Origin: a virus
Virus record (IMG/VR): IMGVR_UViG_3300045999_011383
DNA length: 64,000 nucleotides
Direction: 5' to 3' (one strand)
Shown: positions 7,569 through 40,281 of the stretch, piece by piece
How positions within the stretch are numbered: position 1 is the first letter of the stretch
Layout: each line of letters starts with the position of its first letter
The notes under the pieces: generated by a model
What the model was told of the DNA's origin: nothing
Database searches by the model: none
What the model saw: only the letters and a program-made list of their open reading frames with translations
Translations under genes and position numbers: made by a program

Positions 7569-8180
7569 TTATTTATTTTGTTTCCAATATTTAAGCTTTA
7601 CGTAATTCTCCTCTATGCTATTTACCGCATCAACACCTGACTTGGTTAATCGATAGTAGTCCCGATTTTTGCCCTTGACTACCACGCTACGAACCTTTTC
7701 AATAAGTTCTTTTTCAGTCAGCTTGTTCAGAGATGGGTACAAACTCCCATAACCAATGTCATGTCCGCAGCATTCACTAAGTGCTTGTTTGATCTCAAGT
7801 CCGTACATTGTGCGATCGCAGATAGCTCTTAAAATCAATTCTTCACTGATAGATAACTTCATGCTCTTGTTGCACCAACGGACAATTTCTTTTAATTGCC
7901 TTAAGGCAAAAACTGGCAGCTTGTCGTTTAAGTATTTTTCCGCAATCTCTTTTGCTTTTTCAGGGTTGTCAGCTTTTACGTACAGGGACGCACATTTAAC
8001 TGCTATGGTTGCAACCCTCTTAGTATTACCAGGATCAACAGAGTTTAATGCCCGTTCCTCTTCCTGGGCAGCCAAAAGGAACATCTGCGTAGACTCCTCT
8101 ATTCTGTGTGTCTTACGCAGATGCTCTGCTTCTTCTGCGTATTTCTGACTGTTCGTATAACTAGTTAACCAAACACTCAT
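7569..8180 (-). CDS. PadR-family winged-helix regulator with helical N-terminal extension
   Basis: C-terminal ILRAICDRTMYGLEIKQAL....GSLYPSLNKLTEKELIE....YYRLTKSG matches the PadR pattern. Confidence 0.7.
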   Translation of the reverse strand: MSVWLTSYTNSQKYAEEAEHLRKTHRIEESTQMFLLAAQEEERALNSVDPGNTKRVATIAVKCASLYVKADNPEKAKEIAEKYLNDKLPVFALRQLKEIVRWCNKSMKLSISEELILRAICDRTMYGLEIKQALSECCGHDIGYGSLYPSLNKLTEKELIEKVRSVVVKGKNRDYYRLTKSGVDAVNSIEENYVKLKYWKQNK

Positions 8181-8185
8181 TTTTT

Positions 8186-8449
8186 TTAGTTGCTAAGAAG
8201 ATTCCAAAAAAAAGTATCATCGTTCCAGGCACGAGGGGTCGTATCAATGTGACGCAACCACCAAGCAAAATTATTTTTAATAAGGGAAAATCCCCTTAAA
8301 AACCTGTTTTCCTTCTCTTCCTTTATCTTTGAAACCACTAAGAATTCTATTTCTGGATGATCAAGCTCTGTTTGAAGTATCGTGACAATATCCTCCTCTG
8401 AAAGATTTGGACTAACCATAATATTAATTTGTAAATTCCAAGTTTTCAT
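8186..8449 (-). CDS. hypothetical protein (87 aa)
   Basis: ORF co-oriented with and tightly spaced to its neighbours. Confidence 0.45.
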   Translation of the reverse strand: MKTWNLQINIMVSPNLSEEDIVTILQTELDHPEIEFLVVSKIKEEKENRFLRGFSLIKNNFAWWLRHIDTTPRAWNDDTFFWNLLSN

Positions 8450-8513
8450 AGTTTAAATTCCCTTTTGGTTTCCTGTTTATTAATTATTATCATATATCAA
8501 ATTACGGATAACG

Positions 8514-12629: not shown

Positions 12630-13031
12630 ATGCAGTTTCCCAGCCATCTAGAGACACAGGAGGATATCCAACAACCCCAGAAGAACCCACTAGAACTTAC
12701 CGTGAAGCCCGGTGGTGAGTTTGCAGTCAAAGGTTCTATTCCTGAAGATATCCTTGACAGGATCATCACGTCATCTGACTATCACAAAGATAAACAGTAT
12801 CGCGCTGAAGAGCAAAGTCGGCGCGACGCAAAGTACCACAAAGATCAGCAGTATCGCATTGAACAACAGATTCAGCGCGATGCAACCATAACTAATATTT
12901 TCACTATTAGTTTTTTGGGGTTGACCTTTCTTGTATTAATTCTCTGTGCATATTTAAGTATCAACAAATCAACCAACCAGGAACATCAAAATGTTAGACA
13001 ACATATTCGGGGGACTTGCGTCCAGCAATAA
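12630..13031 (+). CDS. C-terminally membrane-anchored protein with a tandem 17-aa repeat; start uncertain
   Basis: YHKDKQYRAEEQSRRDA followed by YHKDQQYRIEQQIQRDA, then the TM segment IFTISFLGLTFLVLILCAYL. Competes with ORF 12518..12718 at its 5' end. Confidence 0.4.
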   Translation: MQFPSHLETQEDIQQPQKNPLELTVKPGGEFAVKGSIPEDILDRIITSSDYHKDKQYRAEEQSRRDAKYHKDQQYRIEQQIQRDATITNIFTISFLGLTFLVLILCAYLSINKSTNQEHQNVRQHIRGTCVQQ

Positions 13032-13431
13032 TAAAACTGATCTAAAAGGAATTGGAACTAATGTCACAAAAATTGGGGACATGGGTAGTTCTTTAGCAAG
13101 AATTAAAGAGAGAATGATCCTTCCAGAATCAGTTTCCGCCCAACAGGTTTTAAACGAAGCTAAACACACTGGAGAAATAGAAGCCCAATTAGAATTAGCA
13201 AGAGACATAGTTACCAGTAGAAGTCAGCAAATGGATCAGCTACTAAGGCTTCATGAGTTGAATGTTCAGCACACTCAAAAAGTAATGCAAGTTGATGAAC
13301 GTTTAAGAGGGATTGAAGCTAGTCACGGTAAAGTTGTATCTAGGTATCAACTAGGCGCAGCAGAAACTCAAGTTAACTTAAACGCCTACGAAACAGTCTA
13401 TACGGTTCAAGCTACGGAGATATTTTCATGA
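12991..13431 (+). CDS. coiled-coil protein (146 aa)
   Basis: Heptad-rich sequence; overlaps its neighbours. Confidence 0.45.
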   Translation: MLDNIFGGLASSNNKTDLKGIGTNVTKIGDMGSSLARIKERMILPESVSAQQVLNEAKHTGEIEAQLELARDIVTSRSQQMDQLLRLHELNVQHTQKVMQVDERLRGIEASHGKVVSRYQLGAAETQVNLNAYETVYTVQATEIFS

Positions 13432-14794: not shown

Positions 14795-16331
14795 AACCCC
14801 TTTTACCAAGGATAGAGACAACTTTCTCCCATTAATGATGACAGAACGATTATTAATGGGAACGCTGGCAATTACAGCCATAGCAGGTACTTTTTCCCCT
14901 GTATTATTTTCCCATCAAAATAACTCGGTTAAGTTGGTTCAGCAAATATTTGGATTATTCTCAGGTATTTGTTTTACTGGAGAATCTTATCGCAGGAAGC
15001 AAAAAGAAAAATTCTACAACTCCATAGAACAGGCAAATTTAGCTATTGTCAACAATCAGCTTAAAGGGTCTTTTGCCTTTGAACAGTGTCGAACTCAGAT
15101 TGATTCTAAGCGGGAATTAGCTTCTTATGTCAACTTATTGCCAGAAATAGAACGACCCCGATGGACACAAGAATTTGGGCTACATGGCTTAGTTGAGTTA
15201 CCGCAGATACAGCAAGCAGTCCTTGAACAGCCTAAGCAGTTGCCCGGTTCTCGTAGTATTCCTAACCCAGAGGTTGCCACCATTGACGAACAATCAGTAC
15301 AAGCAATTATCAATCCTAGCGTAAGACAACTACTGCAAGAATTAGCATCTCAGTATCCTGAATATGTGCGGATAGATGATTTCTGGGTTGATGAATTGTG
15401 TGAAAGTTCATCTAGACAAAACATGAGCGATCGCGCCAATCATCACTTTAGTTTTTGGGGAGAAACCCAATCAGGGAAATCAACTTTAGCAGGTGTTTTT
15501 ATCAATAAGATTGCTGCTAATTCACAAAGGCCAGCTTATGTGTTTTGTTCAGATCCCAAGAATTACTTAACAGCTTGGTTGTGTAAATTTAGCCGCAAGT
15601 TTGATGGGTTTAAAACCAATTTAGATCATTGGGTTACTTTTGCCACGAAAGTTATAGATGCACGTCAGGATGAGTTTAAAAACAACCGCAAGGGTGAAGG
15701 ATTAAGTGAAATATTCTTGGTTCAAGACGAGGTTAATGTTGTTTATGGTGAGGGCAAAGGACTACTTGGACAAGTACCAAAAGAAACGGCAATGAACCTT
15801 TGCGCTATGTGGAATTATATTATTAATTTCACCGCAGCCATGAAAATTCACGGCATCTTTATGGGACAAAATCCATTAAGTACCTACACTGGTTTTTCCC
15901 GTCCTGCACTTAAAAATATTTGCTTTTTGGCATTGGGGAAAGTGTCCAATTATGTACTTACTAGAATGCCAGAATTGTTAAATGTCAAAGCAGAAATATC
16001 TGATTTGTTTAGTCAAGTGTGTGAACTCTTAGACAGGGAACAGGTGAGATATGCCCTGGTAATTCCTACTCGTGGTAATCCATTTGTAGCCTTAATTCCG
16101 GTATTTGATATTGATGCAATGGAACAGGTCAACGAACCCCAAGAAACTGCTCCTAAGCAAGACGCAGTTAACTATTACGAAATACTGATTGAATGGATTA
16201 AAGAATTAGAGAGATTCCCCACCAACGATGAACTAAAAGCAGCCTGGAAACACTTGACCGAACAGGAACTAAATGATAACGGGATTGAGTTACTAGCGTC
16301 CAAATTAAAAGAGGAATGGGAAAATGAGTAA
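14781..16331 (+). CDS. membrane-anchored P-loop NTPase (FtsK/TraD/HerA-like, tentative)
   Basis: Two N-terminal TM segments, Walker A FWGETQSGKST and Walker B IFLVQDEVN. Confidence 0.6.
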   Translation: MQIRETPFTKDRDNFLPLMMTERLLMGTLAITAIAGTFSPVLFSHQNNSVKLVQQIFGLFSGICFTGESYRRKQKEKFYNSIEQANLAIVNNQLKGSFAFEQCRTQIDSKRELASYVNLLPEIERPRWTQEFGLHGLVELPQIQQAVLEQPKQLPGSRSIPNPEVATIDEQSVQAIINPSVRQLLQELASQYPEYVRIDDFWVDELCESSSRQNMSDRANHHFSFWGETQSGKSTLAGVFINKIAANSQRPAYVFCSDPKNYLTAWLCKFSRKFDGFKTNLDHWVTFATKVIDARQDEFKNNRKGEGLSEIFLVQDEVNVVYGEGKGLLGQVPKETAMNLCAMWNYIINFTAAMKIHGIFMGQNPLSTYTGFSRPALKNICFLALGKVSNYVLTRMPELLNVKAEISDLFSQVCELLDREQVRYALVIPTRGNPFVALIPVFDIDAMEQVNEPQETAPKQDAVNYYEILIEWIKELERFPTNDELKAAWKHLTEQELNDNGIELLASKLKEEWENE

Positions 16332-20268: not shown

Positions 20269-21714
20269 ATGACCGAAAAACCAGGGGAATATACAGCCAA
20301 GTACAAGCCAACTCAATTAATTCAAGGAACTGGACAGACTGCATTGATAACAGGATGGACTATCAAAGAAGCAGTCCAAAAACATTTGAGTAACCATGAA
20401 TATGCAGTTATTGGGCAACTATACTCACCCACAAGAGGGATTAACTTAGTGGTTCGGAATCTGCTATTAAATCCTCATGTTAGGTACTTAGTAATTCTCA
20501 ATGGAACTAAGGAAGACAAAAACGCAGGTGGCTGTCAATGTTTAGCTGACTTTTTTCGTTATGGTTTCAATAAAGGTATTAGTGATATTGGTAGAAAAAC
20601 CTGGGTAATTTCTTCTTCTATTACTGGCTATATTGACATCGAGATTGATATGAATGTTTTAAAAAAATTGCGTGAGTCTGTAGAAATCAAGGAAGTACAA
20701 TCAATAGCCCAAGCTGTTGAAGCGGTCAGAGATTATGCAACTAAAAAACCCGTTGCACCTTGGGGAACACCCTTAGAATTTCCCATGAGTACAATTGAAT
20801 CAAATACCCTACCAGGACCCCTCTATGGTCACAGAATAGAGGGTAAAACCATTGCGGAAACCTGGGTAAAAATCATCCATAGAATTAAAACAACCGGGGT
20901 GATCCGACCCACTAGCCATGATGGAACGTGGCAGGAATTGATAGATTTAATGGCAATTATTACCAATGAGCCTGATGATTTTTACTTTCCTGAACCCAAC
21001 TATTTGCCAGTAGATAGAAGTTTTTTACAAGAATATATTTCTCAGATATTAGAGGACGCGCCTAGTCAAGAAGGGATAAAATACACCTATGGACAAAGGT
21101 TACGTTCCTGGTTTGGTAAAGACCAGGTTCGACAGGTAATTGAAAAGCTAACCCATGACATTAATTCCGCCAGGGCTGTAATGTCTCTGTGGGATATTAA
21201 AGAAGACAACGATGAATCTAATCCCCCCTGTTTAAATCATATTTGGGTAAGGGTAGTCAGCGGTGAACTGTCTTTAACCGCAACCTTTCGTAGTAATGAT
21301 ATGTTCTCAGCATGGCCAGCCAATGCCATGGGTTTAAGGGCTTTACAGAAATATATTTATAGTGCTTTATTGAGTTCCCATCAATCCCTCAAATTAGGTC
21401 CATTGATTACCATTAGTCAGAGCGCTCATATTTATGATGATTGTTTTGAGAATGTCAGCAAGGTAATCTCATCTCAGTATGGTAAGATTGCCAAAAACCA
21501 GGATTACTCTGATCCTGTGGGGAATTTTATTATTAGTAATCAAGAGGGTAAAGTCGTGGTTGAGCATACCACCCCTGGTTCAGGAGAGGTGGTTAATTGT
21601 TATTCAAATAAGTCCGCTTATAAGGTGTCACAAGAAATAATGAGAGATTGTCCAGGGTTGCAAAACTCCCATGCTATGTATTTGGGATGGGAGTTGTGCA
21701 AGTTAAAGTATTAA
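20269..21714 (+). CDS. thymidylate-synthase-family pyrimidine C5 transferase with about 170-aa N-terminal extension
   Basis: Catalytic-Cys motif NPPCLNHIW, then TFRSNDMFSAWPANAMG (the RS.D region) and SQSAHIYDD (the HiY motif). Substrate specificity cannot be read from the sequence. Confidence 0.75.
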   Translation: MTEKPGEYTAKYKPTQLIQGTGQTALITGWTIKEAVQKHLSNHEYAVIGQLYSPTRGINLVVRNLLLNPHVRYLVILNGTKEDKNAGGCQCLADFFRYGFNKGISDIGRKTWVISSSITGYIDIEIDMNVLKKLRESVEIKEVQSIAQAVEAVRDYATKKPVAPWGTPLEFPMSTIESNTLPGPLYGHRIEGKTIAETWVKIIHRIKTTGVIRPTSHDGTWQELIDLMAIITNEPDDFYFPEPNYLPVDRSFLQEYISQILEDAPSQEGIKYTYGQRLRSWFGKDQVRQVIEKLTHDINSARAVMSLWDIKEDNDESNPPCLNHIWVRVVSGELSLTATFRSNDMFSAWPANAMGLRALQKYIYSALLSSHQSLKLGPLITISQSAHIYDDCFENVSKVISSQYGKIAKNQDYSDPVGNFIISNQEGKVVVEHTTPGSGEVVNCYSNKSAYKVSQEIMRDCPGLQNSHAMYLGWELCKLKY

Positions 21715-21829: not shown

Positions 21830-22852
21830 CTAGGAAACCTTGATTTCAGCGATCGCTTCTTCTAAATGTTCCTGAATCACTAATCCCTCTCGCTCTAAAA
21901 TCGCTCGTTTAGCTGCATCTTGGGCAACCCTCACAGCTTGAGCCGCAGAAAAATCTTTCATCTGTTCAATAATTCTTGGCCAGTTGATAGATCCCACTTC
22001 AATTGCAGATAGTGTTTCCCTCAGTATAAATTCTAGTTCTTTTTCTCCCGGTTTGGGTACTGCAATCAGATCATCAAATCTCCTCCATAGGGCAGTATCC
22101 AAAGATTTATTCAAATTCGTAGCGGCTACCATAAGCCCAGAAGAAGGTTGATATTCATCCAAAATTTGCAAAAATGTATTTACTACTCGCTTAATTTCTC
22201 CCACTTCCTGAGAATCTTCTCGTGTCTTAGCAATTGAGTCACATTCATCTAAAAATAATAAACATGGATTTTTTGCAGCATCCTCAAATACCAGTCTTAA
22301 ATTACTGGCTGTCTCCCCTAAAAAAGACGACACCATTGCATCAAAACGTACTTTTAACAGTGGTAAACCTGTATTCCAGGCTAAACGTTCTGCTCCTAAT
22401 GTCTTTCCACACCCAGGCGGTCCATAAAGGAGAATTTTTTGCCGATAACGCAGCCCATGATGAGCTAGTCTATCTCTTGCTGCATACTCGCGCTCAATTC
22501 TTTGAAAACGCTTTTCAATTTTTTCAGGCAATACCATGTAATGACGTAGTTTATCCCTTGGTATGGTCGTTACCAAGGGAAGGTTAAAACGCTTACTGGT
22601 TGGTAATTCGCTTAAACCCTGTAAGTTTTCTCCTGTTGTTTGTGTGGCATTTGCAAGAAAGGAAACAGGTTTGATAGGGTCGGGAGATTGATCTCTGGGT
22701 TTCTTTTTAGCAATATTCTCTAACTGGTCAGCAAGGAGGGTATGCCCTTTACTGCGCTCTTCTTCTATGACCAGATATGCAAGTTTGTCAATCGCTTCTT
22801 GGTCTGAACTAGCGATCGCTCTGAAAAACCTTTTGAGAATCTCTCCCTTCAT
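21830..22852 (-). CDS. classical AAA+ ATPase
   Basis: Walker A LLYGPPGCGKT, Walker B LLFLDECDS, and second region of homology ATNLNKSLDTALWRRFD. Confidence 0.85.
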   Translation of the reverse strand: MKGEILKRFFRAIASSDQEAIDKLAYLVIEEERSKGHTLLADQLENIAKKKPRDQSPDPIKPVSFLANATQTTGENLQGLSELPTSKRFNLPLVTTIPRDKLRHYMVLPEKIEKRFQRIEREYAARDRLAHHGLRYRQKILLYGPPGCGKTLGAERLAWNTGLPLLKVRFDAMVSSFLGETASNLRLVFEDAAKNPCLLFLDECDSIAKTREDSQEVGEIKRVVNTFLQILDEYQPSSGLMVAATNLNKSLDTALWRRFDDLIAVPKPGEKELEFILRETLSAIEVGSINWPRIIEQMKDFSAAQAVRVAQDAAKRAILEREGLVIQEHLEEAIAEIKVS

Positions 22853-22951: not shown

Positions 22952-22965
22952 TTGCAACTGGGCTT
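22952..22965. repeat. inverted partial CRISPR repeat (14-nt perfect anti-repeat)
   Basis: ttgcaactgggctt is the exact reverse complement of repeat positions 23-36 (aagcccagttgcaa). Confidence 0.7.
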
Positions 22966-22968
22966 TGA

Positions 22969-23034
22969 CTTGCAATTAACCCAGTCCCTCAAGGTCGGCT
23001 TCTTGCAATTAACCCAGTTCCCCAAGTCCGGTTT
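22969..23034. repeat. two tandem spacerless degenerate CRISPR-repeat-like 33-mers
   Basis: cttgcaattaacccagtccctcaaggtcggctt followed by cttgcaattaacccagttccccaagtccggttt. Each aligns to the 37-nt repeat at roughly 24 of 33 positions and they abut repeat 1. Confidence 0.6.
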
Positions 23035-24171
23035 GCTTCAACTATCCTCAGTCCCTAAGCCCAGTTGCAAGTGTCAAGGGGTTTATTTTCGAAACCCTTA
23101 TATTTCCTACGTCGTTTCAACTATCCTCAGTCCCTAAGCCCAGTTGCAAGTGAAGGACGTGATTCTAATGCAGCAAAGAACATCTGTTTCAACTATCCTC
23201 AGTCCCTAAGCCCAGTTGCAAGACACATTCTTTATCTTTTAAATATAGCTTATACCATCTGTAGTTTCAACTATCCTCAGTCCCTAAGCCCAGTTGCAAG
23301 AACACCTTACCACCTTTAAGGTAAGACGGCACTTTAGGTTTCAACTATCCTCAGTCCCTAAGCCCAGTTGCAAGACAGAATTGAGAGAACTTTCAAGCCA
23401 TAAGAGAGTAGCGTTTCAACTATCCTCAGTCCCTAAGCCCAGTTGCAAGATTTTCAAAAATTTAAAAATGAATCTGGACATGAAGATGTTTCAACTATCC
23501 TCAGTCCCTAAGCCCAGTTGCAAGAATGCACATTAACAAAAAAAAACCATGAAAAACCGTTTCAACTATCCTCAGTCCCTAAGCCCAGTTGCAAGAAAAC
23601 TTATCAGATACTTAATAAGGCTATAGGTTAGTTTCAACTATCCTCAGTCCCTAAGCCCAGTTGCAAGCTCCCATTTATACAGCTTACTAGCAGCGCAAAT
23701 AGTTTCAACTATCCTCAGTCCCTAAGCCCAGTTGCAAGTCAAAAATCAACAGGAATTGGCCACTACTATTGAAGGATGTTTCAACTATCCTCAGTCCCTA
23801 AGCCCAGTTGCAAGATAAAGCCGTCCGGGGAGGCATGACTAATGAGGATGGTTTCAACTATCCTCAGTCCCTAAGCCCAGTTGCAAGTTGAGACAGTTAA
23901 ACCCAAGGTACTTTAACCTAGTTTCAACTATCCTCAGTCCCTAAGCCCAGTTGCAAGAAAGTATTAAAGAAATGCTCAAACTACCGGCATGTTTCAACTA
24001 TCCTCAGTCCCTAAGCCCAGTTGCAAGTTGCTACATTTACCATACTTATGGAAACTGTCAATGTTTCAACTATCCTCAGTCCCTAAGCCCAGTTGCAAGT
24101 TACTTTGTAAGACGTTATGTAAGACGGCGATGGAGTTTCAACTATCCTCAGTCCCTAAGCCCAGTTGCAAG
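23035..24171. CRISPR. CRISPR array: 16 x 37-nt repeats, 15 spacers (33-42 nt); transcription direction unresolved
   Basis: Repeat is GTTTCAACTATCCTCAGTCCCTAAGCCCAGTTGCAAG. Starts are 23035 (one mismatch, GCTTCAAC), 23114, 23186, 23264, 23338, 23413, 23488, 23559, 23631, 23702, 23778, 23851, 23921, 23991, 24063 and 24135. All spacers are unique. Confidence 0.97.
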
Positions 24172-24514
24172 TCCCGGCTTTCAAAAGCTTTATAAGTCAA
24201 GGGTTTCAAAGGCAATTCTGGCGGACCTGCTAAAAAATCTCATTTCAGCCGCTTAAATCAGCTTGGGTCTTTAAAAGAAACTGAGCGAAACTCTTGCAAT
24301 GTCATGGTTCTGGACTTTTGGCGAATGTCCAGGGTTTTTACCCTAGCTTTGATATGCCAAAAAGATGAGATAGTTGCCAGCCATAGTTCCGGCTGGTCTT
24401 TGGGGGTTGTCGCCTTCCCCCTTACTTTTTAGGGTAAAACCCTTACAAGTCATAAGCTAACATTACATTAGCTACCCGTCCAAACTGCGGTAATTTAATA
24501 TTAACCTAGTCCTA
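24172..24514. ncRNA. ORF-free, hairpin-dense spacer between cas12-like stop and array (candidate tracrRNA/scaffold or leader)
   Basis: Stem-loops at 24312-24330, 24331-24344, 24377-24396, 24402-24421 (GGGGG/CCCCC followed by ttacttttt), 24431-24443 and 24455-24474. Confidence 0.3.
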
Positions 24515-26389
24515 TTACTTTGTCAAGCGTTTTTTCTTAAATCTTTTAGGCTTTTGATAAACCAGCCTAACATTATGGTATTTGACCTCTCCCAATTCAA
24601 AACCACCATTCTGTTTATGATTTCTAGCAGCATTGGTATCAGCTTGTTGGGCAACGTCAAATAATTTACAGTCAGGGTTTTTACAGACAAATTCATACTG
24701 CGATCGCCTTTCCCCTTTCTGTCCGCAACAATGGCATATTTGAGAGCTATAATTAGCAGGTGGTTCATGGAAGTTGCCACCTCTATTTTCTATTTTTTGC
24801 TTGGTTTTAGCTTTCAAGTCACCTAAACATCTTTGTCTCATAATCCAGTTTAAACCACGTTTAGCAGATGCACCATTGTGAGCATATCCCACACCCTCTG
24901 GTAATGCTTTTGGATCTACTTGTTTAAGTAAGTTGGTAACTTGTGTATCCTCCCAAGATATATGTTCATAAGTGCGAGATAATCTTGTGGATAACTTGTG
25001 ATTAAAGGCATTAGAGGAATTAGCCCCGCGTTCGTGTAGACGGCTGATTTTTTGTTGTAACTTAGATTCATTCTTTGTCTTGATTCTAGAGGTCTTGTTG
25101 CCTAAGCTTTTCCATTTTTTATCATTAATTAATTCAGCGTTGTCTAGACGTGATTGTAATTCCTCAATGTGAATTGAGATCCGCTCCCTAGTAAGGTTAG
25201 GAAGGAATAAAGCCCCATGATCTGTAGACACTACAGCCTGTACCCCAGGGTCAATACCCGCACTCAGATTTTTACCTTTTAAAACTGATGACTGCTTAAT
25301 TTGTTGCTCAATGAATTTCAGTTTTGACTTGATATCTTGGTACTCTTCACTGTCTTCACCAAACTCTTTTTTTACCTTGGGTAACTTATTTGTTAGTACA
25401 GACTTTTCCTCTTGCAATGGGTGAGCAACTACAATATTAATGTAGTATCCTGACTGCTGTTTGGTAATCATGTATGTCCGTGGCAAAACCTGAGAAAGAT
25501 TCAATCTTTTTACCCAGTTTTTGTCAGCAATAGTGATGGGAGTAAGTCCGGTGACAGTAACTATGTTTTTGTCAATGTCAATCCTGTTAGGCGCACATTG
25601 ATTATTAGATAAAGTTGCAATCTTGTCTACATCTTTTTTGAATTTTGGCTTTCTACTGTTTATCCTTTTAGGATCTAAAAATGCCTTCCAAGATTCCTTA
25701 AAAAATGCTAACAGCCCGCCAATATAGTGGGAAGAAACCTGCAAGTCTGGTAAATTTTGGAATGCTCTTAAAGTATTTAATCCAGTCACGTTGTCAAGTT
25801 TTTCCAAAGTAGTCAGTTCCCTACCCTCATACTTTCCACTAGGGAATGTGCGGTATTTGTGAGGGACTATTTCTATCCGTTGCCAGGGCTTATCGCCTTT
25901 AACTAATTTGTACCCCTTGACGTAAATAACGCCTTTTTTGGTATTAACTGGAATATTGATATTTTCATCTCTCTTCCAATAATTCCCGCCTGTGGCTATT
26001 TGACAGGATAATCCTTCATAAGCACTATTTCCAAGCCTTAATGGCACAGGAATAATGCCTTCCAAGCTAAATGGACTCCATCTGGTAAATATCTCAAATT
26101 CTTTCTTGCTAACTAATTCCTGTTCTTTTTTAGACAGCTTAGGCTTATCCTTGGTGGAATAGTAATCTTTAACTAATTGTTGTTGCTCAGGTTTAAGTTT
26201 TTCCAGTTTTTCAGTAGCCTTGGTTAAATCTGCACTGCGTTTAGCAGCCCAAGCATACCAATCTACGCAGTGATTGTGTAGTTGGTTGGAAAGTGCTAAA
26301 TTCCACAGCCATGTTAATTCATCTAAGTAGCGATCGCACACAGCCGCCTGTTCTGATGAGAGTTTGATTTTAATCTTAATTGTCTTCAT
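24515..26389 (-). CDS. cas12: TnpB-like type V CRISPR effector (Cas12 family), RuvC residues intact
   Basis: 624 aa. TnpB-like N-terminus IKIKLSSEQAAVCDRYLDELTWLWNLALSN. RuvC-I GIDPGVQAVVSTDHG, RuvC-II HISWEDTQVTNL, zinc finger CHCCG..x13..CKNPDC, RuvC-III QADTNAARN. Adjacent to the array. Confidence 0.85.
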   Translation of the reverse strand: MKTIKIKIKLSSEQAAVCDRYLDELTWLWNLALSNQLHNHCVDWYAWAAKRSADLTKATEKLEKLKPEQQQLVKDYYSTKDKPKLSKKEQELVSKKEFEIFTRWSPFSLEGIIPVPLRLGNSAYEGLSCQIATGGNYWKRDENINIPVNTKKGVIYVKGYKLVKGDKPWQRIEIVPHKYRTFPSGKYEGRELTTLEKLDNVTGLNTLRAFQNLPDLQVSSHYIGGLLAFFKESWKAFLDPKRINSRKPKFKKDVDKIATLSNNQCAPNRIDIDKNIVTVTGLTPITIADKNWVKRLNLSQVLPRTYMITKQQSGYYINIVVAHPLQEEKSVLTNKLPKVKKEFGEDSEEYQDIKSKLKFIEQQIKQSSVLKGKNLSAGIDPGVQAVVSTDHGALFLPNLTRERISIHIEELQSRLDNAELINDKKWKSLGNKTSRIKTKNESKLQQKISRLHERGANSSNAFNHKLSTRLSRTYEHISWEDTQVTNLLKQVDPKALPEGVGYAHNGASAKRGLNWIMRQRCLGDLKAKTKQKIENRGGNFHEPPANYSSQICHCCGQKGERRSQYEFVCKNPDCKLFDVAQQADTNAARNHKQNGGFELGEVKYHNVRLVYQKPKRFKKKRLTK

Positions 26390-27189
26390 GTCCGTCGTCT
26401 TCCTGTTGTTTTTGTCAATTGGTGTTGATGTAAATAGCTGTTTTGTGCTATATTGTTAGTTGCCGCTCCCCCAAACTAGCGGCTAAGTACCTGGTAATAG
26501 AAACGTCGTTATTGGTACTAACCGCGTTTTTTGGTATTTATTTAGGATAGCACAAATTTGGTAATTTAAAAATATTTTTTATATTAAAAATTAGACATTA
26601 ACTGATAGTTGCATACACCCCAAATCTTTACCCCAGTCATGTTTTAACTAATTCCTGCTTTCTTTTGTAAGACAATAATGTCAGACAATGTAAACAATGT
26701 AGACAAATAATCTTGTTTGAAAACAGCCACAGAACCCGTCATTTTAACCACTGGGTTCTTATTACTTATTGACAATTAGTAGATTAATAAATGTCTGCTG
26801 ATTAGGCAGACGGTATTGCACAGGTGACAACCGAGTTATTAGTATAGCATCATAGCAAGTTATTTATACAACAATTAAACAATTGCAAAATTCCGTATAC
26901 TTTAGGGTTGGCACTGGAAAACTATAAGGATATTATAGGGATATAGAGTATCTAAGCGGAATGCCCTTCATAAGAGGATTTGAGAAAAGAACTAACACCA
27001 CAGATATCTGTTGTTCCTGAGACAAAGGTGCGCCTGCTGCGCTTAAACACTATTACAGAAAAAACAAATAGACTTTGTTTCAGAATTTATAAAGCAATTT
27101 TAAAGCGTACTTATTGCATAAATAAAAAAATACCCACTAAAGCGTGTTAGTGGGTAGTGGAAATAAGCTACTTCACTGGAATACTTGCA

Positions 27190-27441
27190 TTAAATTAACT
27201 CCAGCAAAATTGTTAATGCGGACTGGATACTGTTAATAGCATCTTTGATTAATGCCCGCTTTTGGGTTGCGGGTTTGTTTGGACTAGAAACTAATAACTC
27301 ATCATTAGCTATTAGTTTCATGAATTTGGAAATGTTGGGGTCTTCACCCCACAGGCAGCCAAACTCCAAAGCTTTATTCTCTAGCTTGGCTTTGTCTTCC
27401 ATTGAGATAGAGAGCGTGATGCTCTCTTGTTTTCTACTCAT
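27190..27441 (-). CDS. ribbon-helix-helix (CopG/Arc-like) small regulator
   Basis: ESITLSISMEDKAKLENKALEFG has a beta-strand-then-helix pattern. Start overlaps the upstream ORF stop (ATGA). Confidence 0.5.
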   Translation of the reverse strand: MSRKQESITLSISMEDKAKLENKALEFGCLWGEDPNISKFMKLIANDELLVSSPNKPATQKRALIKDAINSIQSALTILLELI

Positions 27442-27947
27442 AGAGAAATATTCCCTTTATTTTCAATCCACCATTTTGCGGACGTGGGAATTTTCTTATT
27501 GTTTTTTAGTGCGATCGCAACATCATCTATTGCTCTAACTGCTATAGATTTAGCCCATTTAATCTGCTTTTCAGAGCCTTCAAACTTTAGCGACTCTACA
27601 TAATTAAGAGCATCTTCTCTGTTGCTTTCTGAGACTGGATCTTCTTCCTCGATCTCATAATCGCACGGAATACTATCTAAATTCTTTAAAACAGCACTGA
27701 AAATTATTTCATTTATAGGTACAGAAGAGAGAATAAAACTCTCTTCTCTGATTACCTCTAGAACTAAATCTTCAGCAATAGATTGATAGGTTTCACCTGG
27801 CTCTAACTGGAACTCAGAATTGCTCACTAAATATTCCACTACCTTTCTAACGGCTTTCTGGCATTCTGGATTTCTAAAATCCACACGAATCATTTGAAGC
27901 CCAGAAGTGTCAAATTTATTTAAAAGCCTTCTTTGTTTGATAGCCAT
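27438..27947 (-). CDS. hypothetical acidic protein (169 aa)
   Basis: Co-transcribed with the RHH gene. No motif recognised. Confidence 0.5.
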   Translation of the reverse strand: MAIKQRRLLNKFDTSGLQMIRVDFRNPECQKAVRKVVEYLVSNSEFQLEPGETYQSIAEDLVLEVIREESFILSSVPINEIIFSAVLKNLDSIPCDYEIEEEDPVSESNREDALNYVESLKFEGSEKQIKWAKSIAVRAIDDVAIALKNNKKIPTSAKWWIENKGNISL

Positions 27948-28108
27948 GATACAATACCTTTAAACGATGTTTTACTTAGAGGCTTGGGCTTGCTCCCCTT
28001 GCCTCTATATTTATATCATTACACAATATTTTATCCTTGTCAATAGCAAAGTGTCCGTATTTTAAATATTTTGTACTGAACTTTTGAAGTTGTAAATTGT
28101 ACAACATA

Positions 28109-28207
28109 AAAAGAAGTAAACGACGTAACCGACATCAACTAAAACAGCAACTAAGAAAATTAGATGCGATCGCACTTAAACAAATCCATAGCAGCTTGGG
28201 GGGATAA
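28109..28207 (+). pseudogene. N-terminal fragment homologous to ORF 39453..39776
   Basis: Translates as KRSKRRNRHQLKQQLRKLDAIALKQIHSSLGG*, compared with KRQARRHRHLLKKQLRELDAIAKKQINNNYNL.. in the 107-aa protein. It has no ATG and lacks the Cys-rich remainder. Confidence 0.4.
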
Positions 28208-28413
28208 ACCCGACATATCTAAGCTTTTAAGTAGATAGCCCAACGGGAAATACTGCTTTCTTGTTCTGATAAACCCACCAAAAAACAAAGTCCTTTAATT
28301 AAAGAAGCGATCGCGCTTATTCAAAAAGGATTGTCAATTTTAATAGAATTAATTTAGTTTTTAAAGCGCTCTTGACAGGGCGTTTTTTGTTGTTTAAAAA
28401 CTTAATTTAATTG

Positions 28414-28443
28414 TTGATTAATTGTTAATCAATGTGTTATACT
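28414..28443 (+). promoter_or_regulatory. candidate promoter of the csf operon (TTGATT-18-TGtTATACT, extended -10)
   Basis: ttgattaattgttaatcaatgtgttatact, 38 nt upstream of the GTG at 28481. Confidence 0.4.
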
Positions 28444-28480
28444 AAATCAAGATTAAATTACTTTAGTTTGGGAAAGTAAA

Positions 28481-28999
28481 GTGACAACCAATCATTACGG
28501 AATGCCACAGACACGAGACAAGTGTTATGGCGTGGCTGCTTGTTTAAGTTATTGGGTTTTTAAATGCCGTGACAGGAAACGTAGTCCAGCCATGGGAACT
28601 AAAACCTGGACATATTTGGAATCTTCTATCAAGAATTGTGCAGAAATATCCACAAATTTAGAAGATTATCTACAAAATCTTTGTGATAAATTGATATCGC
28701 AATTAAGACCTGTAGAGCTAACCAAAATTATTCAACCAACTCAGAGAATACTGAGAATTAATGAAGATGCAACTGAAATCAAGGAACTACCAATAGATCG
28801 AAGTTTGGTTTTTATGGGGTGGCTTGACTTGCTTGCCGATATTGAACCCCACGGATTTAGTGAGTGGGACGTAATGGAATTGTTAAGAACAAAAACAGGA
28901 GTTATTCAAGTAATTTGTCGTCTGCGATTTGAAGAAGATAGAAGTGTGGGGCTTGATGAACCAGAAGAATTTATTGAGGTAGAGGTGACAAATGTTTGA
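28481..28999 (+). CDS. first gene of csf operon; possible Cas11-like small subunit (assignment by position and size only)
   Basis: 172 aa, GTG start. Its stop overlaps the csf2 ATG. No diagnostic motif. Confidence 0.4.
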   Translation: MTTNHYGMPQTRDKCYGVAACLSYWVFKCRDRKRSPAMGTKTWTYLESSIKNCAEISTNLEDYLQNLCDKLISQLRPVELTKIIQPTQRILRINEDATEIKELPIDRSLVFMGWLDLLADIEPHGFSEWDVMELLRTKTGVIQVICRLRFEEDRSVGLDEPEEFIEVEVTNV

Positions 29000-30125
29000 T
29001 AATTATAATATTTTTGACAGAGAGAAATTAACCCTGCATTGCTTAATCACGCTACAGACACCATTGAGCCATATAGGCGAAGTGTCTGGCAATGTTAGCA
29101 ATCTGAAAACTACTAAGTTATTGGACTTTGAAGGTAATCCTAGAAGTGTTTTTGTCTATTCTGGTAATGCAATCAGAAACGGTATTTTGCGCCGGGTAGG
29201 AGTGGCAGCAGCACTCACGGAATTAGGAATTAAGGTAAATCCAGATACTCACCATACAATGTTTGCTGGCGGGCGAATTGATGGGGGGACAGCTTCGGAT
29301 ATGGAACTGGATAAAAAGATCCGGGTCTTTATGCCTTGGCTATCAGTATTGGGAACAGCCAAACCCATAGGTGTTTTTGGGACTAAAGAAGCCCAGATGG
29401 TAGCTGGTAGAAGTAATATTGGCAGTGGTTATTTAGTCTGCTATGAGTCAGCAGAATACGTTTACAACCAACTCCCAGCAGTTTTACCACCGGAAATACA
29501 GCCAACTATGGCCTTATTAATTGAAGCTAAAACCAGACTTTCTTCCGACCCTTTTGTATCCACAAAATCAGAAGACTTAACTAACTGGAATCAAGCAAAA
29601 TCAGAATGTTTGCCACTGATCAAAAAAGCAATGAAAACATGGACTGAATACTTAACAATTGATCAGACAACTCGCAGAGATAGCACTTTAGATCCCAACT
29701 TACTCAAATTTCTACCATCAGAAGTACAAGCACAATTAACAGGTGATGGTAAAACTAAAGAAAAAACTAAATCAGATCAGATGATTGCGTCTGACAGGCT
29801 GATCATGCCCGGTGCTAAACTTTATTCTCGATGGGATCTAACTTGTACTCAAATAGAAGAGGGATGGATATTTGATACTTTACTCAAGTTTTCAGAATCA
29901 CCTTATATTGGTGGTAAAGGCAATCGTGGCAATGGCAGGGTTCATCTTGATTTCTGGTTTCAGTCTGACCATGAACGGGGGTTATTGTGTTCTCTGAAAG
30001 ATGGAATTATGGGAGATAGGTTTCTTAATTCCCATCAAAAATATCGGGAATATATCAATCAGTATCAGCAGTTTTTAAGTGAAGCAAAAACATCCAAGGA
30101 ATTAAGGAAGTTGTTAGGTGAATAA
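28992..30125 (+). CDS. csf2: Csf2-like Cas7-family RAMP (type IV backbone subunit)
   Basis: LITLQTPLSHIGEVSG....VFVYSGNAIRNGILRR is the RAMP N-terminal motif. Also MFAGGRIDGG and WLSVLGTA, with C-terminal G-rich loop YIGGKGNRGNGRVHLDF. Confidence 0.75.
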   Translation: MFDNYNIFDREKLTLHCLITLQTPLSHIGEVSGNVSNLKTTKLLDFEGNPRSVFVYSGNAIRNGILRRVGVAAALTELGIKVNPDTHHTMFAGGRIDGGTASDMELDKKIRVFMPWLSVLGTAKPIGVFGTKEAQMVAGRSNIGSGYLVCYESAEYVYNQLPAVLPPEIQPTMALLIEAKTRLSSDPFVSTKSEDLTNWNQAKSECLPLIKKAMKTWTEYLTIDQTTRRDSTLDPNLLKFLPSEVQAQLTGDGKTKEKTKSDQMIASDRLIMPGAKLYSRWDLTCTQIEEGWIFDTLLKFSESPYIGGKGNRGNGRVHLDFWFQSDHERGLLCSLKDGIMGDRFLNSHQKYREYINQYQQFLSEAKTSKELRKLLGE

Positions 30126-30804
30126 TTTAAAAGTCACTGCATATTTGTCTACACCGATTGGTGTCTATGACAATTGGAGTCCTTCTTTGGAGGGACTTCT
30201 TACCTATAGATTACTAGAAGAAAATAATCTATTGTCTCCCAATCCCACCGCAGAGCAAGTAGCAAAGGTTCAGAATTTTTTAGTAAATGAATTACCGCTT
30301 AAACAGAATACAATAATGAATGATAAGTATTTCTGTGTAAGTTCACCTTGCTATGTGGTTCAAGGTGAGGCTACTGATAAATATCGGAAAAGATGGGACA
30401 ATCACGAAAATAATCTGAACTGGGGAAAAAGAAAGCCTAAATTCTTGACGGGTGAAGGTGCAGAAAAGTCCTATGATTTACCGCTATACACTCGTTTAAC
30501 AAATAGTATTAGTTGGTTTGTAACAGGCGACAGAACCAAGATTGACGCTCTATTGTCACCTGTTACCCATATTCAGAAAAAACGAAGTTATGGCAATGGT
30601 GAAGTTAAGCAATGGCAACTAGAAATAGTTTATGACGACTATCATTTGTGGCGAGATAATAAACTAATGCGTCCTATGCCCGTGAAGTTAATATCACAAA
30701 AAATAGATAATCCTCAAATGATTTGGGGATGGAAAAGCCCGTCTTGGTTAGCAGAAAATAAAGAACTTTGTTATATGCCAAAGGACAATGTGATTTATGC
30801 TTAG
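30118..30804 (+). CDS. csf3: Csf3-like Cas5-family RAMP
   Basis: KVTAYLSTPIGVYDNWSPSLEGLLTY at the N-terminus and G-rich loop KKRSYGNGEVKQW. GTG start overlaps the csf2 stop. Confidence 0.6.
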   Translation: MNNLKVTAYLSTPIGVYDNWSPSLEGLLTYRLLEENNLLSPNPTAEQVAKVQNFLVNELPLKQNTIMNDKYFCVSSPCYVVQGEATDKYRKRWDNHENNLNWGKRKPKFLTGEGAEKSYDLPLYTRLTNSISWFVTGDRTKIDALLSPVTHIQKKRSYGNGEVKQWQLEIVYDDYHLWRDNKLMRPMPVKLISQKIDNPQMIWGWKSPSWLAENKELCYMPKDNVIYA

Positions 30805-31543
30805 TAATGGCTCTGGGGTTCAATACCCTTGGTTGAAAAAGAAAATTACTAAAGCTATTAATTTCATTAATCAGTGGCTAGAACAATGCAACTATCAGGT
30901 TTATGCAAGTATTTCCGGTGGTAAAGATAGCTTAGTAATGTCTCATTTGATCAGGAAAGTTTACCCTGATTGCCCGTTAGTTTGGGTAAATCAAGGGCTG
31001 TTAGCAGAATGGGATGATTGTATTGAATTATTGGAATACTTGAAAACTCAAAACTGGAACATTATTGAGCTTTGTCCAGTTCGTGATTTATGGCATTTAT
31101 ACATAGATCACGGAGTTCCGTTAGAGGGTACGATGGATACAAAAGTAGATAAATTAATCAACCAAAAATTGATTTATGATCCATTGCAAGAATACCAAGA
31201 AATCAACAATATCAAAGGGTACGCATGGGGAATAAGGAAGCAAGAAAGCAAAAACAGAGCATTTTATCTTAACAAGTACGGTGAAGTTCATGAACTAAAA
31301 AATGGGTTAATTTGTTGCTCGCCTATTGCTCACTGGACTACAGAAGAAATATGGCAGTACATAGATATGTACTCACTCAAATACCCAGCAATTTATGACA
31401 TTAACAAAATGACAGTCAGGAATGGTTGCCCGATTGGAACTACAGGAGCAAACTGGGGTAGATTAGCTGAATTAAAAAGATATTACCCCAATATTTACAA
31501 CCAATTTGTTGATAAATTCCCACAAATATCGAACTATGTCTAA
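30797..31543 (+). CDS. cysH: PAPS-reductase / CysH-like PP-loop enzyme
   Basis: PP-loop ASISGGKDSLVM, then WGIRKQESKNR and PIAHWTTEEIWQYI. Embedded inside the csf operon with overlapping junctions. Confidence 0.85.
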   Translation: MLSNGSGVQYPWLKKKITKAINFINQWLEQCNYQVYASISGGKDSLVMSHLIRKVYPDCPLVWVNQGLLAEWDDCIELLEYLKTQNWNIIELCPVRDLWHLYIDHGVPLEGTMDTKVDKLINQKLIYDPLQEYQEINNIKGYAWGIRKQESKNRAFYLNKYGEVHELKNGLICCSPIAHWTTEEIWQYIDMYSLKYPAIYDINKMTVRNGCPIGTTGANWGRLAELKRYYPNIYNQFVDKFPQISNYV

Positions 31544-32294
31544 TTGCTACCTTTGCGCTAAACCAGCATCAAATCCACTAGAATTATCCAATACTTTCAC
31601 CATGCACTCATCGGCTAAGTGTCCAGACTCTAAGCTGCTGTGCGATCGCTGCTATTCTACAATTTCTGGTAATCAAAAGCAGTTATGGTATTGGAATGAA
31701 GGTAAAAATAAGTGGTCAAAACTGTGGGGACGATCTTTGTCCAGGGTGTACCAAGGCGATACTTTAATAGCACCAATAATTAAAGGCACTCACACTGAAG
31801 GCAAAGATACTTTCAGTGTGGTTAGAAACTTATTGACGCGGGTAGAAATCAGGGAATATTTATTAAATCCTCCTGAGCCACCGTTCACTATCGCTATAGC
31901 AGAATCAGGACAAAAACACATTATCCCATGGGCATTAGAAGCGCGTAGCTGTAACTTTTTTCCAATTCAATTTGAGTTAGACACGGTTTATATTGACAAC
32001 AGATTCAAGGAATCTTTGCAAGTATATGAACAACTAATGGGATTAGGGTTTAGTAAGTCTGAAATTGATTCAGGAAACTACAGAAGCGATAGATTGATGA
32101 AAGTGTTTGATAAATTTTGGGAACTTGAGGAATCCATAAAAGCCATTAGAGGGACTAGATTAATGGAATTAATAAATTACGTCGCTCAACTACAATCAAG
32201 TGCCGTCGTGGCGGAAATAAAGCCAATTCCTGTAATTCCTGTTTCTCCCACGAGTCCAGACAAATCAAATCCAGTTCAGTTATCGTTGTTTTAG
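31536..32294 (+). CDS. csf1: Csf1-like zinc-finger large-subunit protein
   Basis: Tracked ORF trimmed to the ATG at 31536 (ATGTCTAA overlap with the cysH-like stop). N-terminal CYLC..x21..C..x6..CDRC cysteine cluster; about 250 aa. Confidence 0.55.
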   Translation: MSNCYLCAKPASNPLELSNTFTMHSSAKCPDSKLLCDRCYSTISGNQKQLWYWNEGKNKWSKLWGRSLSRVYQGDTLIAPIIKGTHTEGKDTFSVVRNLLTRVEIREYLLNPPEPPFTIAIAESGQKHIIPWALEARSCNFFPIQFELDTVYIDNRFKESLQVYEQLMGLGFSKSEIDSGNYRSDRLMKVFDKFWELEESIKAIRGTRLMELINYVAQLQSSAVVAEIKPIPVIPVSPTSPDKSNPVQLSLF

Positions 32295-32310
32295 CAAAAA
32301 CCCTTATAAT

Positions 32311-32402
32311 TCCGATCCGTTAAAAATAACGCTGGAGTCTTTAAAATCAACGCTGGAGTCAGCAAAGATAACGCTGGAGTCCTTAAAATTAACATTGGAG
32401 TC
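32311..32402. repeat. iteron cluster: 4 x AACGCTGGAGTC-type 12-mers at exact 21-bp spacing
   Basis: Cores at 32328, 32349, 32370 and 32391 (the last reads aacattggagtc). The 29-nt lead-in tccgatccgttaaaaataacgctggagtc matches 50459-50487 at 27 of 29 positions. Confidence 0.75.
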
Positions 32403-40059: not shown

Positions 40060-40281
40060 TTATTCCTCTTGCTTAAATGGCTCATCAAACCCCCACTGAT
40101 GAGCTAAAAGTTTTTCGTAGCTTAATCTTTGGATCTCGTGATGCCTAAACAGATTAATCAAAACCTGTTGAGTTTGTTCATGGGACATCTGCCTAACCTG
40201 TTGCTCAAATGCAACTATCTTAAATTGTGAAGCAAGTGGTAATTCTTCAAATTGGCTCATAATAAGATCCCAGACATACAT
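40060..40281 (-). CDS. hypothetical protein (73 aa)
   Basis: Co-oriented chain. Confidence 0.4.
   Translation of the reverse strand: MYVWDLIMSQFEELPLASQFKIVAFEQQVRQMSHEQTQQVLINLFRHHEIQRLSYEKLLAHQWGFDEPFKQEE

Follow-up and report, generated by a model that had tools for sequence, protein, structure and literature searches.

Type IV-B is a CRISPR (short palindromic repeats that are clustered and regularly interspaced) subtype whose function is still unknown. A 2020 survey placed it mainly on actinobacterial plasmids, and two roles have been proposed for it, scavenging of CRISPR RNAs (crRNAs) (PMC8175902) and sponging of guide RNAs; neither has been demonstrated, and both ideas have had no natural context in which to be tested. 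The sole solved type IV-B complex assembled on non-CRISPR RNA despite a co-expressed crRNA (PMC8175902). Type V-P is a class 2 system whose effector, Cas12p or 'Cas12 hacker', is a phage-encoded nuclease of 500-700 residues that binds, and is activated by, host thioredoxin; Cas12 hacker-1 uses a 185-nt trans-activating CRISPR RNA (tracrRNA), a 37-nt repeat, and a 5'-GTN protospacer-adjacent motif (PAM) (bioRxiv 10.1101/2025.01.20.633832). Here we analyze a 64,000-nucleotide stretch of viral DNA, IMG/VR record IMGVR_UViG_3300045999_011383 (the window), in which a cas12p gene, its tracrRNA gene and a CRISPR array lie beside a type IV-B csf operon, between positions 22,952 and 32,402. Our best explanation, to which we assign a probability of about 70%, is that this stretch holds two independent counter-defence or competition modules in one variable island.

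The type V-P locus

The features of the class 2 half are the following.

24515-26389, minus strand: cas12p, 624 residues, type V-P effector ('Cas12 hacker'), identified by phmmer against PDB 9JFS
24498-24526, minus strand: promoter-like site TTGACA-17-TAATAT, a consensus match only, ending 7 nt upstream of the tracrRNA 5' end
about 24307-24491, minus strand: tracrRNA gene, between cas12p and the array
23035-24171, minus strand: CRISPR array, 16 repeats of 37 nt and 15 spacers (repeat finder and Tandem Repeats Finder)
23151-23185, minus strand: spacer 14, AGATGTTCTTTGCTGCATTAGAATCACGTCCTTCA, with a protospacer in related cyanophages, in the 3' part of their V-U2 (C2c8-like) effector gene
22969-23034, no strand assigned: two degenerate units of 33 nt, without spacers, that belong to a second ('D-type') repeat

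The preliminary description of this stretch treated the 624-residue protein as an unclassified, RuvC-intact, TnpB-derived type V nuclease encoded 343 nt from the array. Its catalytic integrity, its TnpB ancestry, and the distance hold, but the protein belongs by sequence to Cas12p, a family already named and characterised, so that for the class 2 half the architecture is already catalogued as a named subtype. Residues 1-615 align with chain A of PDB 9JFS/9JG3 (deposited as 'Cas12p') at 1268 bits and about 88% identity. The RuvC triad D380/E480/D584 (D378/E478/D582 in the reference) is kept in conserved contexts, together with the zinc-finger (TNB) insertion (Pfam Cas12f1-like TNB domain, 3.7e-9) and a CxxC motif. 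The thioredoxin pocket is also retained (W44, Y45, W47, W104, F107, L109, I112, I113, V115, L117, C129, I131, and I174, with C129 equivalent to reference C127) and shows a single change, L51 to R; the PAM-contacting residues D199, N263, and Q264 are unaltered. By analogy, the window Cas12p is expected to be an active nuclease that reads a GTN PAM and depends on thioredoxin. The locus further shares with Cas12 hacker a tracrRNA with a GUUU:AAAC pseudoknot, a 37-nt repeat, and a phage origin, and differs in its spacer set and in the inversion of its array relative to the csf operon.

The nuclease also matches the guided_TnpB, C2c8, and Cas12u2 models in addition to the Cas12f1-like TNB domain, and Cas12k models give no match. 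Membership of V-U2 (C2c8), the closest of the older models, was considered and rejected: the score of 187.6 bits lies below the NCBIfam cut-off of 350 and covers the C-terminal half only, and Cas12p fits far better. Identity is 25-29% to annotated c2c8 genes and to the effector of Aphanizomenon phage vB_AphaS-CL131 (CL131), the closest cultured relative of the window. CL131, a lytic cyanophage too, combines a TnpB-derived type V effector with a 10-spacer array and lacks adaptation genes (PMC6293099), but its V-U2 effector comes from another family (28.6% identity over 60% of the protein), its repeat is different, it has no csf genes, and its effector gene is itself matched by window spacer 14. 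Cas12k of type V-K, the CRISPR-associated transposon system, resembles the window system in its cyanobacterial setting, its size of about 640 residues, its long tracrRNA between gene and array, a GTN PAM like the one predicted for the window protein, and its repeat ending ...GAAA(G/C). The Cas12p preprint reports structural likeness to Cas12k in the WED, RuvC, and PI domains (bioRxiv 10.1101/2025.01.20.633832). The RuvC of Cas12k, however, is inactive, and Cas12k acts together with TnsB, TnsC, and TniQ, whereas the window protein has an intact RuvC and no Tn7 genes around it.

The tracrRNA gene had been overlooked. Its 5' end (24491, minus strand) reads ACCGCAGUUUGGACGGG and begins with ACCGCAGUUUGG; a GUUU here pairs with the 3' AAAC of the repeat to form a pseudoknot, which is the published architecture of the Cas12p single-guide RNA (bioRxiv 10.1101/2025.01.20.633832). 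The anti-repeat CAACUAUC pairs with the repeat segment GAUAGUUG, and for the 3' end of the RNA the sole guide is analogy with the 185-nt tracrRNA already published. The sequence ACCGCAGUUUGGRCGGG is conserved directly past the stop codon in every homologue, down to 49% identity. The tracrRNA is conserved in 13 sequences from phage contigs, cyanobacterial metagenome-assembled genomes (MAGs), chromosomes, and the cultured Cylindrospermopsis phage Cr-LKS4, with compensatory changes in 9 of its 17 predicted pairs. The spacing of gene, tracrRNA, and array is constant at 13 loci or more, and the three follow one another in this order on one strand at every Cas12p homologue locus examined.

The pairing between tracrRNA and repeat identifies the owner of the array. 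Related phages carry at least six different repeat sequences, and the best partner for the 3' part of each tracrRNA is the repeat of the same locus: the duplex energy summed over nine loci is -267.8 kcal/mol, against -193 +/- 15 kcal/mol after shuffling, and a total as low is obtained in just 1 of 100,000 permutations. The anti-repeat thus co-varies with the repeat, and on these grounds the array is assigned to Cas12p, read from the minus strand with its leader at the 24171 end. Since the system is tracrRNA-dependent, production of crRNA should need no Cas6, and the part of the preliminary description that invoked a host Cas6 falls away.

Cr-LKS4 (locus L028) shows a different arrangement. It encodes a 45%-identical Cas12p homologue, has no CRISPR array, and carries three stand-alone tracrRNA-like scaffolds (8009-8150, 8371-8500, and 15096-15240), two of which are preceded by one and the same TTGACA-17-TATAAT promoter. 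In two copies the scaffold closes with ...GGGAAC, unrelated sequence comes next, and the pseudoknot position holds GUUC rather than GUUU. These scaffolds look like natural single-guide (omega-RNA-like) genes and, if so, would be the unsplit counterpart of the tracrRNA/crRNA pair; no targets were found for their putative guides.

Array, spacers, and adaptation

Two repeat-finding programs agree on the 16-repeat, 15-spacer array first noted in the preliminary description. The repeat reads GTTTCAACTATCCTCAGTCCCTAAGCCCAGTTGCAAG, or CTTGCAACTGGGCTTAGGGACTGAGGATAGTTGAAAC on the cas12p strand, the spacers are all unique and 33-42 nt long, and the sole mismatched repeat copy is the degenerate terminal repeat at 23035. 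Coordinate 22952, the nominal start of the island, is the start of a spurious open reading frame (ORF) running through the repeats. The D-type units beside the array belong to a repeat type known from related phages: in one relative (locus L017, introduced below) it forms a 28-repeat array facing a convergent V-U2-like effector gene, and in locus L007 a two-repeat mini-array. The two units in the window look like the remnant of the array of a V-U2-type effector, and the match to the repeat serving the L017 effector indicates that an ancestor of the window probably carried such a second system and then lost it.

Spacer content differs completely between close relatives. The window and two relatives, L017 (also L043) and L019 (also L044), have the same repeat and about 87% identical Cas12p proteins and share no spacer, which suggests active turnover without a phage-encoded Cas1-Cas2. 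No credible cas1, cas2, cas4, cas6, or dinG was found in the window, as first reported, in Pfam and PADLOC scans of 78 ORFs of at least 90 residues and a Pfam scan of 37 non-overlapped ORFs of 55-89 residues. The window covers 64 kb, the complete genome is probably close to 110 kb long, and the absence of adaptation genes applies to the window only. One weak Cas1 signal (PADLOC, 13 bits, E about 2e-4) in a 146-residue helical ORF at 12991-13431 was judged spurious. Because the phage fragment lacks Cas1-Cas2 and spacer content turns over completely between relatives, we infer that new spacers come in trans, with the host's Cas1-Cas2 as the most likely source; the host I-D system also selects GTN PAMs. 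Of the dependence on the host suggested earlier, the adaptation part is therefore plausible.

Spacer 14 points to a target. Its protospacer lies in the V-U2-type effector gene of related cyanophages, with 33 of 35 matching positions in L017, 32 of 35 in L007 (5' flank GTA), and 31 of 35 in gp061 of CL131. The CL131 match is the better of two weak hits that the array obtains in 50,697 phage records (2.3 Gb); the other, at chance level with E = 0.3, is to an Escherichia coli phage. A second case comes from a relative: one spacer of L020 (array region 5287-5471) matches the cas12p gene of L022 (11025-11060) at 36 of 36 positions, with a 5' flank of TTG rather than GTN, and the cas12p gene of L020 itself with one mismatch. 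When the 139+ unique spacers of related arrays were compared with the window, CL131, and the loci through L039, these effector genes were the only two targets. Exact 22-nt seeds of spacers 1, 5, and 6 found no match in IMG/VR, and the whole array, compared with plasmids in a distant-homology mode, gave no repeat or spacer match. The picture these matches suggest is one of phages that target each other's CRISPR effectors, which lends support to the earlier idea of warfare between mobile genetic elements.

The type IV-B csf operon

The class 1 half of the island consists of five overlapping genes.

28481-32294, plus strand: csf operon, five genes in the order cas11-csf2-csf3-cysH-like-csf1, 2.1 kb beyond cas12p
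28481-28999, plus strand: cas11-like small subunit, 172 residues, matching three PADLOC type IV Cas11 models (best 2.5e-6) and overlapping csf2
28992-30125, plus strand: csf2 (type IV Cas7), 377 residues, PADLOC Csf2_0_IV 9e-35
30118-30804, plus strand: csf3 (type IV Cas5), 228 residues, PADLOC Csf3_0_IV 2.5e-40 and TIGR03116 2.7e-9, homologues with PF27782:Csf3
30797-31543, plus strand: cysH-like PP-loop protein of the PAPS (3'-phosphoadenosine 5'-phosphosulfate) reductase family, 248 residues, with SGGKDS, Pfam PAPS_reduct 6e-18
31536-32294, plus strand: csf1, the type IV Cas8-like large subunit, whose N-terminus has a CxxC...CxxC zinc finger, PADLOC Csf1_0_IV 1.6e-21 and TIGR03114 4e-8, homologues with PF27781:Csf1

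PADLOC and Pfam models and a structural comparison of Csf2 place these products within the Csf families, in agreement with the preliminary description, and the products also match TIGR03114-03116. The AlphaFold2 model of Csf2 (mean predicted local distance difference test score 77.8) retrieves type IV Csf2 chains for all of its top 32 Foldseek matches; behind these come a type III Csm3 and further type IV-A chains, and rank 37 is taken by the type IV-B entry 7JHY. The cas11 assignment is the weakest of the five and is consistent with the rest. The four internal junctions all overlap, as described, but the start of csf1 was probably placed too early: the ATG at 31536 is the more likely start than the listed TTG at 31506, and it would make the fourth overlap 8 nt long, like those of cas11/csf2, csf2/csf3, and csf3/cysH-like. 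The cysH-like protein aligns with PAPS reductases of the PDB over residues 37-207 only (about 4e-5), and the catalytic cysteine motif of ECGLH type that true CysH has at its C-terminus is missing. No DinG, RecD, Cas10-like, or Cas6 protein was found in the operon or in the rest of the window. Every defining feature of type IV-B that could be tested was found, and we classify the operon as a bona fide type IV-B cassette.

Comparison with the type IV-B system of Mycobacterium sp. JS623 (PDB 7JHY) brings out what is shared and what differs. Both have the five signature genes, are carried by a mobile element, lack DinG, RecD, Cas10, Cas6, and adaptation genes, and encode a CysH-like protein without the C-terminal catalytic cysteine motif. 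The window differs in its gene order, cas11-csf2-csf3-cysH-csf1, in its tailed-cyanophage carrier, and in a Csf2 whose sequence is very divergent from the solved one (phmmer E = 0.84). Arrays are normally absent from type IV-B loci and here lie 2-8 kb away. The type IV-B locus of a Bathyarchaeia 'Fuxiviridae' virus is also virus-borne, with a CysH-like gene, an array nearby, and no adaptation genes, but its carrier is an archaeal virus and it has a single-spacer mini-array and no class 2 effector (PMC10848311), in contrast to the long array of the window, which is matched to the Cas12p tracrRNA. The csf operon and this array are 4.3 kb apart, and several related csf operons are array-less.

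The composition of the operon varies among its relatives. The cysH-like position is exchangeable in L006, L019, L022, L029-L032, and L001 (plasmid pGMOR1 of Gloeobacter morelensis); the PAPS-reductase-family gene of some relatives is only 28-30% identical to that of the window, and a cupin gene follows it in L029-L031. A Cas6 gene occurs in the csf operon of L032, which lies next to a tape-measure gene, and in that of pGMOR1, which also has a cupin gene. No array was found within 12 kb of the Cas6-containing operon on pGMOR1 or within 10 kb of that at L032. A phage with Cas6 and a Csf complex but no array fits an action on host CRISPR transcripts, which leads us to lean toward counter-defence.

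Between cas12p and the csf operon lies one further feature.

27190-27947, minus strand: two small overlapping ORFs of 83 residues (ribbon-helix-helix-like by eye) and 169 residues

Neither ORF matches a family among the Pfam, NCBIfam/TIGR, and PADLOC models. The 83-residue ORF accompanies the csf operon in related phages, and the pair possibly represents a candidate regulator.

Two probably independent modules in one variable island

The two systems occur together and apart. Cas12p with a tracrRNA and 5-35 repeats, and with no csf gene within 10 kb, is found at four cyanobacterial loci (L036, L037, L038, and L039; 68-49% Cas12p identity). Two of these, L038 (among argS, a sigma-70 gene, and NAD synthase) and L039 (a Scytonema assembly with no phage genes nearby), have 49-50% identical proteins and arrays of 29-35 repeats with no cas1 or cas2 within 10 kb; as both are cyanobacterial genome contigs, the Cas12p family is not restricted to phages. 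The reverse also occurs: L029-L035 have a csf operon with neither an array nor cas12p within 10 kb, and L014 and L015 have csf genes with no cas12p and no array of at least three repeats (L014 with 10 kb of flanking DNA on each side, L015 with about 2.2 kb upstream). In L007, the csf operon stands beside a V-U2-type effector and a two-repeat mini-array, without cas12p or its array. Csf2 is absent from Cr-LKS4 and CL131, and the homologues of Csf2 form 300 clusters against 56 for those of Cas12p. This distribution is what we would expect of two separate modules in one hypervariable island.

The relative at IMGVR_UViG_3300042378_000447 (Ga0208362_1000015; loci L017, L005, and L043) ties the window to the published effector. 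Its Cas12p is identical to PDB 9JFS (Cas12 hacker-1) at 613 of 613 residues, and about 88% identical to the window protein. Within 12 kb it carries three CRISPR-type modules: a IV-B operon, Cas12p with a 10-repeat array, and the convergent V-U2-like effector with its 28-repeat array. The IV-B operon lies 0.9 kb upstream of the published Cas12 hacker-1 gene. The Cas12 hacker preprint never mentions type IV, and its AlphaFold-Multimer runs of the effector with three upstream and three downstream ORFs gave no reliable complex (bioRxiv 10.1101/2025.01.20.633832).

We propose the following arrangement. The first module would be a complete type V-P system, with cas12p, the tracrRNA gene, and the 15-spacer array all on the minus strand. 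By homology with Cas12 hacker-1, the tracrRNA would pair with the 3' part of each repeat, and the Cas12p-tracrRNA-crRNA complex, once activated by host thioredoxin, would cut double-stranded DNA beside a 5'-GTN PAM. Its likely objects are competing phages, with at least one spacer aimed at the effector gene of CL131-like rivals, and new spacers would be acquired in trans, most likely through the host's own Cas1-Cas2. The second module would be an array-less IV-B cassette that builds a Csf ribonucleoprotein filament independent of the neighbouring array. It may act in counter-defence by taking up small guide RNAs of the host, with the CysH-like PP-loop enzyme as an ATP-using accessory; granted that the modules are independent, we give this role about even odds, at low confidence. 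The modules would be neighbours through their place in the same hypervariable island and not through crRNA sharing. Comparative analysis identifies the parts, matches the tracrRNA to its repeat, traces how the modules are conserved and separated, and supplies the spacer match; nuclease activity, PAM and thioredoxin dependence of this orthologue, adaptation in trans, and the role of type IV-B are our interpretation.

Several observations weigh against this arrangement. All nine informative viral contigs with a Cas12p of at least 77% identity, that is, those with enough flanking DNA, L017 among them, also carry a csf operon, 0.9-8 kb away; in these relatives it lies upstream on the same strand, with variable DNA between. 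In the window, the cas12p-tracrRNA-array block is inverted and sits on the other side of csf, a mosaic rearrangement that kept the adjacency, and adjacency that survives rearrangement is also expected from selection for linkage. The contigs are close relatives, and the linkage may be one of shared descent; the two are not yet distinguishable. In the repeats a hairpin or stem precedes a terminal ...UGAAAC, which is the shape of a class 1 crRNA 5' handle, as in cyanobacterial I-D repeats, and the Csf complex could in principle load crRNAs from the array. The Cas6 gene in some csf operons suggests that the clade is not uniformly indifferent to crRNA. As for the proposed targets, 14 of the 15 window spacers have no match in the phage records, plasmids, and related loci searched, and the matches of spacer 14 are imperfect, with 5' flanks of GTA, GCA, and TCA of which one is canonical. 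A search of JGI metagenomes with the 21-nt repeat core returned two phage contigs only and no host array. Finally, both modules are known here from their sequences.

The conserved neighbourhood and the class-1-like repeat, a hairpin with an 8-nt ...GAAAC tail, would be explained directly if the Csf complex loaded crRNAs of the same array as Cas12p, cut by a host Cas6 or left as a by-product of tracrRNA processing. A single array would in that case guide two effectors, one that cuts and one that binds or silences, to rival phages or host genes, much as the preliminary description had imagined. The Cas6-containing variants of the csf operon, the IV-B locus with its own mini-array in an archaeal virus (PMC10848311), and the long-standing proposal of crRNA scavenging (PMC8175902) are in keeping with such sharing. 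The array, however, co-varies with the tracrRNA of Cas12p, the csf operon of related phages frequently has no array within 10 kb, Cas12p and its array are common without csf, the window contains no Cas6, and the one solved complex passed over a crRNA for other RNA; we consider a shared array unlikely. A functional meaning of the side-by-side placement of IV-B and V-P in CL131-like cyanophages is, in our estimate, similarly improbable. It could take either of two possible forms: the Csf complex might load crRNAs of the phage arrays, whose repeats are class-1-like, to give a two-effector, one-array weapon, or it might capture host I-D and III-B crRNAs with their ...GAAAC handle while Cas12p attacks rivals. 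Cas12p and the CysH-like protein could also meet on host thioredoxin, of which PAPS-reductase-family enzymes are classical clients.

The array might alternatively be serviced mainly by a class 1 system of the host, I-D or III-B, and would then work by hijacking or as a decoy, with Cascade or Cmr complexes redirected or saturated and Cas12p as a secondary user. The repeat architecture resembles that of cyanobacterial class 1 repeats, cyanophage N-1 has a transcribed array without cas genes, spacer turnover without phage cas1-cas2 implies some interaction with host machinery, and Aphanizomenon hosts do carry I-D and III-B (PMC6293099). Against this stand the confinement of the repeat core to two phage contigs in JGI metagenomes, with no cyanobacterial plasmid match either, the anti-repeat co-variation, which indicates selection for use by Cas12p, and the experimental sufficiency for interference of a Cas12p identical to that of L017 with a 37-nt repeat of this type. 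We regard this role as very unlikely. That the nuclease is an ordinary IS200/IS605-type TnpB that chanced to lie by an array in decay, and the csf genes relics without function, is contradicted by the data and deserves almost no weight. GenBank annotators have called homologues 'transposase', there is a weak Pfam OrfB_IS605 match, and the gene is split into two ORFs in a Cuspidothrix MAG; yet no tnpA was found, the gene is present in a single copy in the window, and tracrRNA and array follow every homologue at a fixed distance. The repeats are perfectly conserved and the spacer sets diverse, the L017 orthologue matches the active 9JFS nuclease at all residues compared, and the intact csf ORFs are conserved across hundreds of contigs at 60-99% identity. 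Independent modules in a shared variable island therefore remain our preferred reading.

The carrier phage, its host, and neighbouring genes

The description of the element as phage-like is borne out. The window belongs to the genome of a tailed, CL131-related cyanophage: its DnaB is 73.9% identical to that of CL131, it encodes tail and structural proteins (Phage_tail_L, minor tail proteins, and a virion structural protein), and it is among viral contigs of IMG/VR that the island has its nearest relatives. Other products include KilA-N proteins, several DNA methylases, a beta clamp, and a DnaD-like loader. Megablast of the island against plasmids and phages gave no match, and Rfam and tRNA scans of the window returned nothing. 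Homologues occur in public assemblies labelled Dolichospermum, Cuspidothrix, Anabaena, Sphaerospermopsis, and Nostocaceae, which points to a host among the Nostocales, of the Aphanizomenon/Dolichospermum kind. A small gene typical of cyanophages, in which it is an auxiliary gene, is also present.

40060-40281, minus strand: NblA (phycobilisome degradation protein), small ORF, Pfam 7.5e-8, above the gathering score

Other genes of the window were recorded in passing.

21830-22852, minus strand: IetA-like AAA+ ATPase (PADLOC 2.5e-79; NCBIfam IteA 226 bits, below its cut-off)
20269-21714, plus strand: 481-residue protein with a thymidylate-synthase-like domain and a C-terminal PterinBD-DUF4346 domain
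57137-57895, plus strand: DUF5131 protein matching the PADLOC candidate-defence models PDC-M41B and PDC-M30B (E about 1e-104)
32328-32402 and 50476-50529: iteron-like repeat clusters of four and three copies, with 21-nt spacing and the core AACGYTGGAGTC

The IetA-like ATPase lies just past the trailer end of the array, with no IetS protease partner nearby. Elsewhere in the window there are two N6/N4 methylases, a Dcm methylase, and an ORF with an ADP-ribosyltransferase domain; taken with these, the 481-residue protein may hint at DNA modification. The iteron-like core occurs seven times against 0.32 expected; one cluster lies directly past csf1 and the other within the DnaD-like helicase-loader gene, and both are possible candidates for a replication origin or initiator-binding sites.

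Implications

For Cas12p, whose host was left undetermined in the original preprint (bioRxiv 10.1101/2025.01.20.633832), the analysis adds a host clade, the Nostocales, and relatives from genome assemblies of cyanobacteria, including one with housekeeping genes around it. It also adds natural targets, the effector genes of rival phages, which would amount to a CRISPR-against-CRISPR competition among the viruses of bloom-forming cyanobacteria, and an overlooked type IV-B neighbour of the published effector. We found no description of a conserved V-P/IV-B neighbourhood in the literature searched, no papers on cyanophages and type IV-B, and no report of IV-B in this host range and type of mobile element.

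If the two systems are merely neighbours, the island is a well-documented but ordinary clustering of defence and counter-defence genes in the variable region of a phage. If either form of coupling were true, type IV-B would gain a defined RNA substrate and a role. The window places a IV-B cassette within a few kilobases of live-looking arrays, in a lytic phage whose host carries I-D and III-B systems, and so offers concrete RNAs and proteins with which the scavenging and sponging proposals can be tested.

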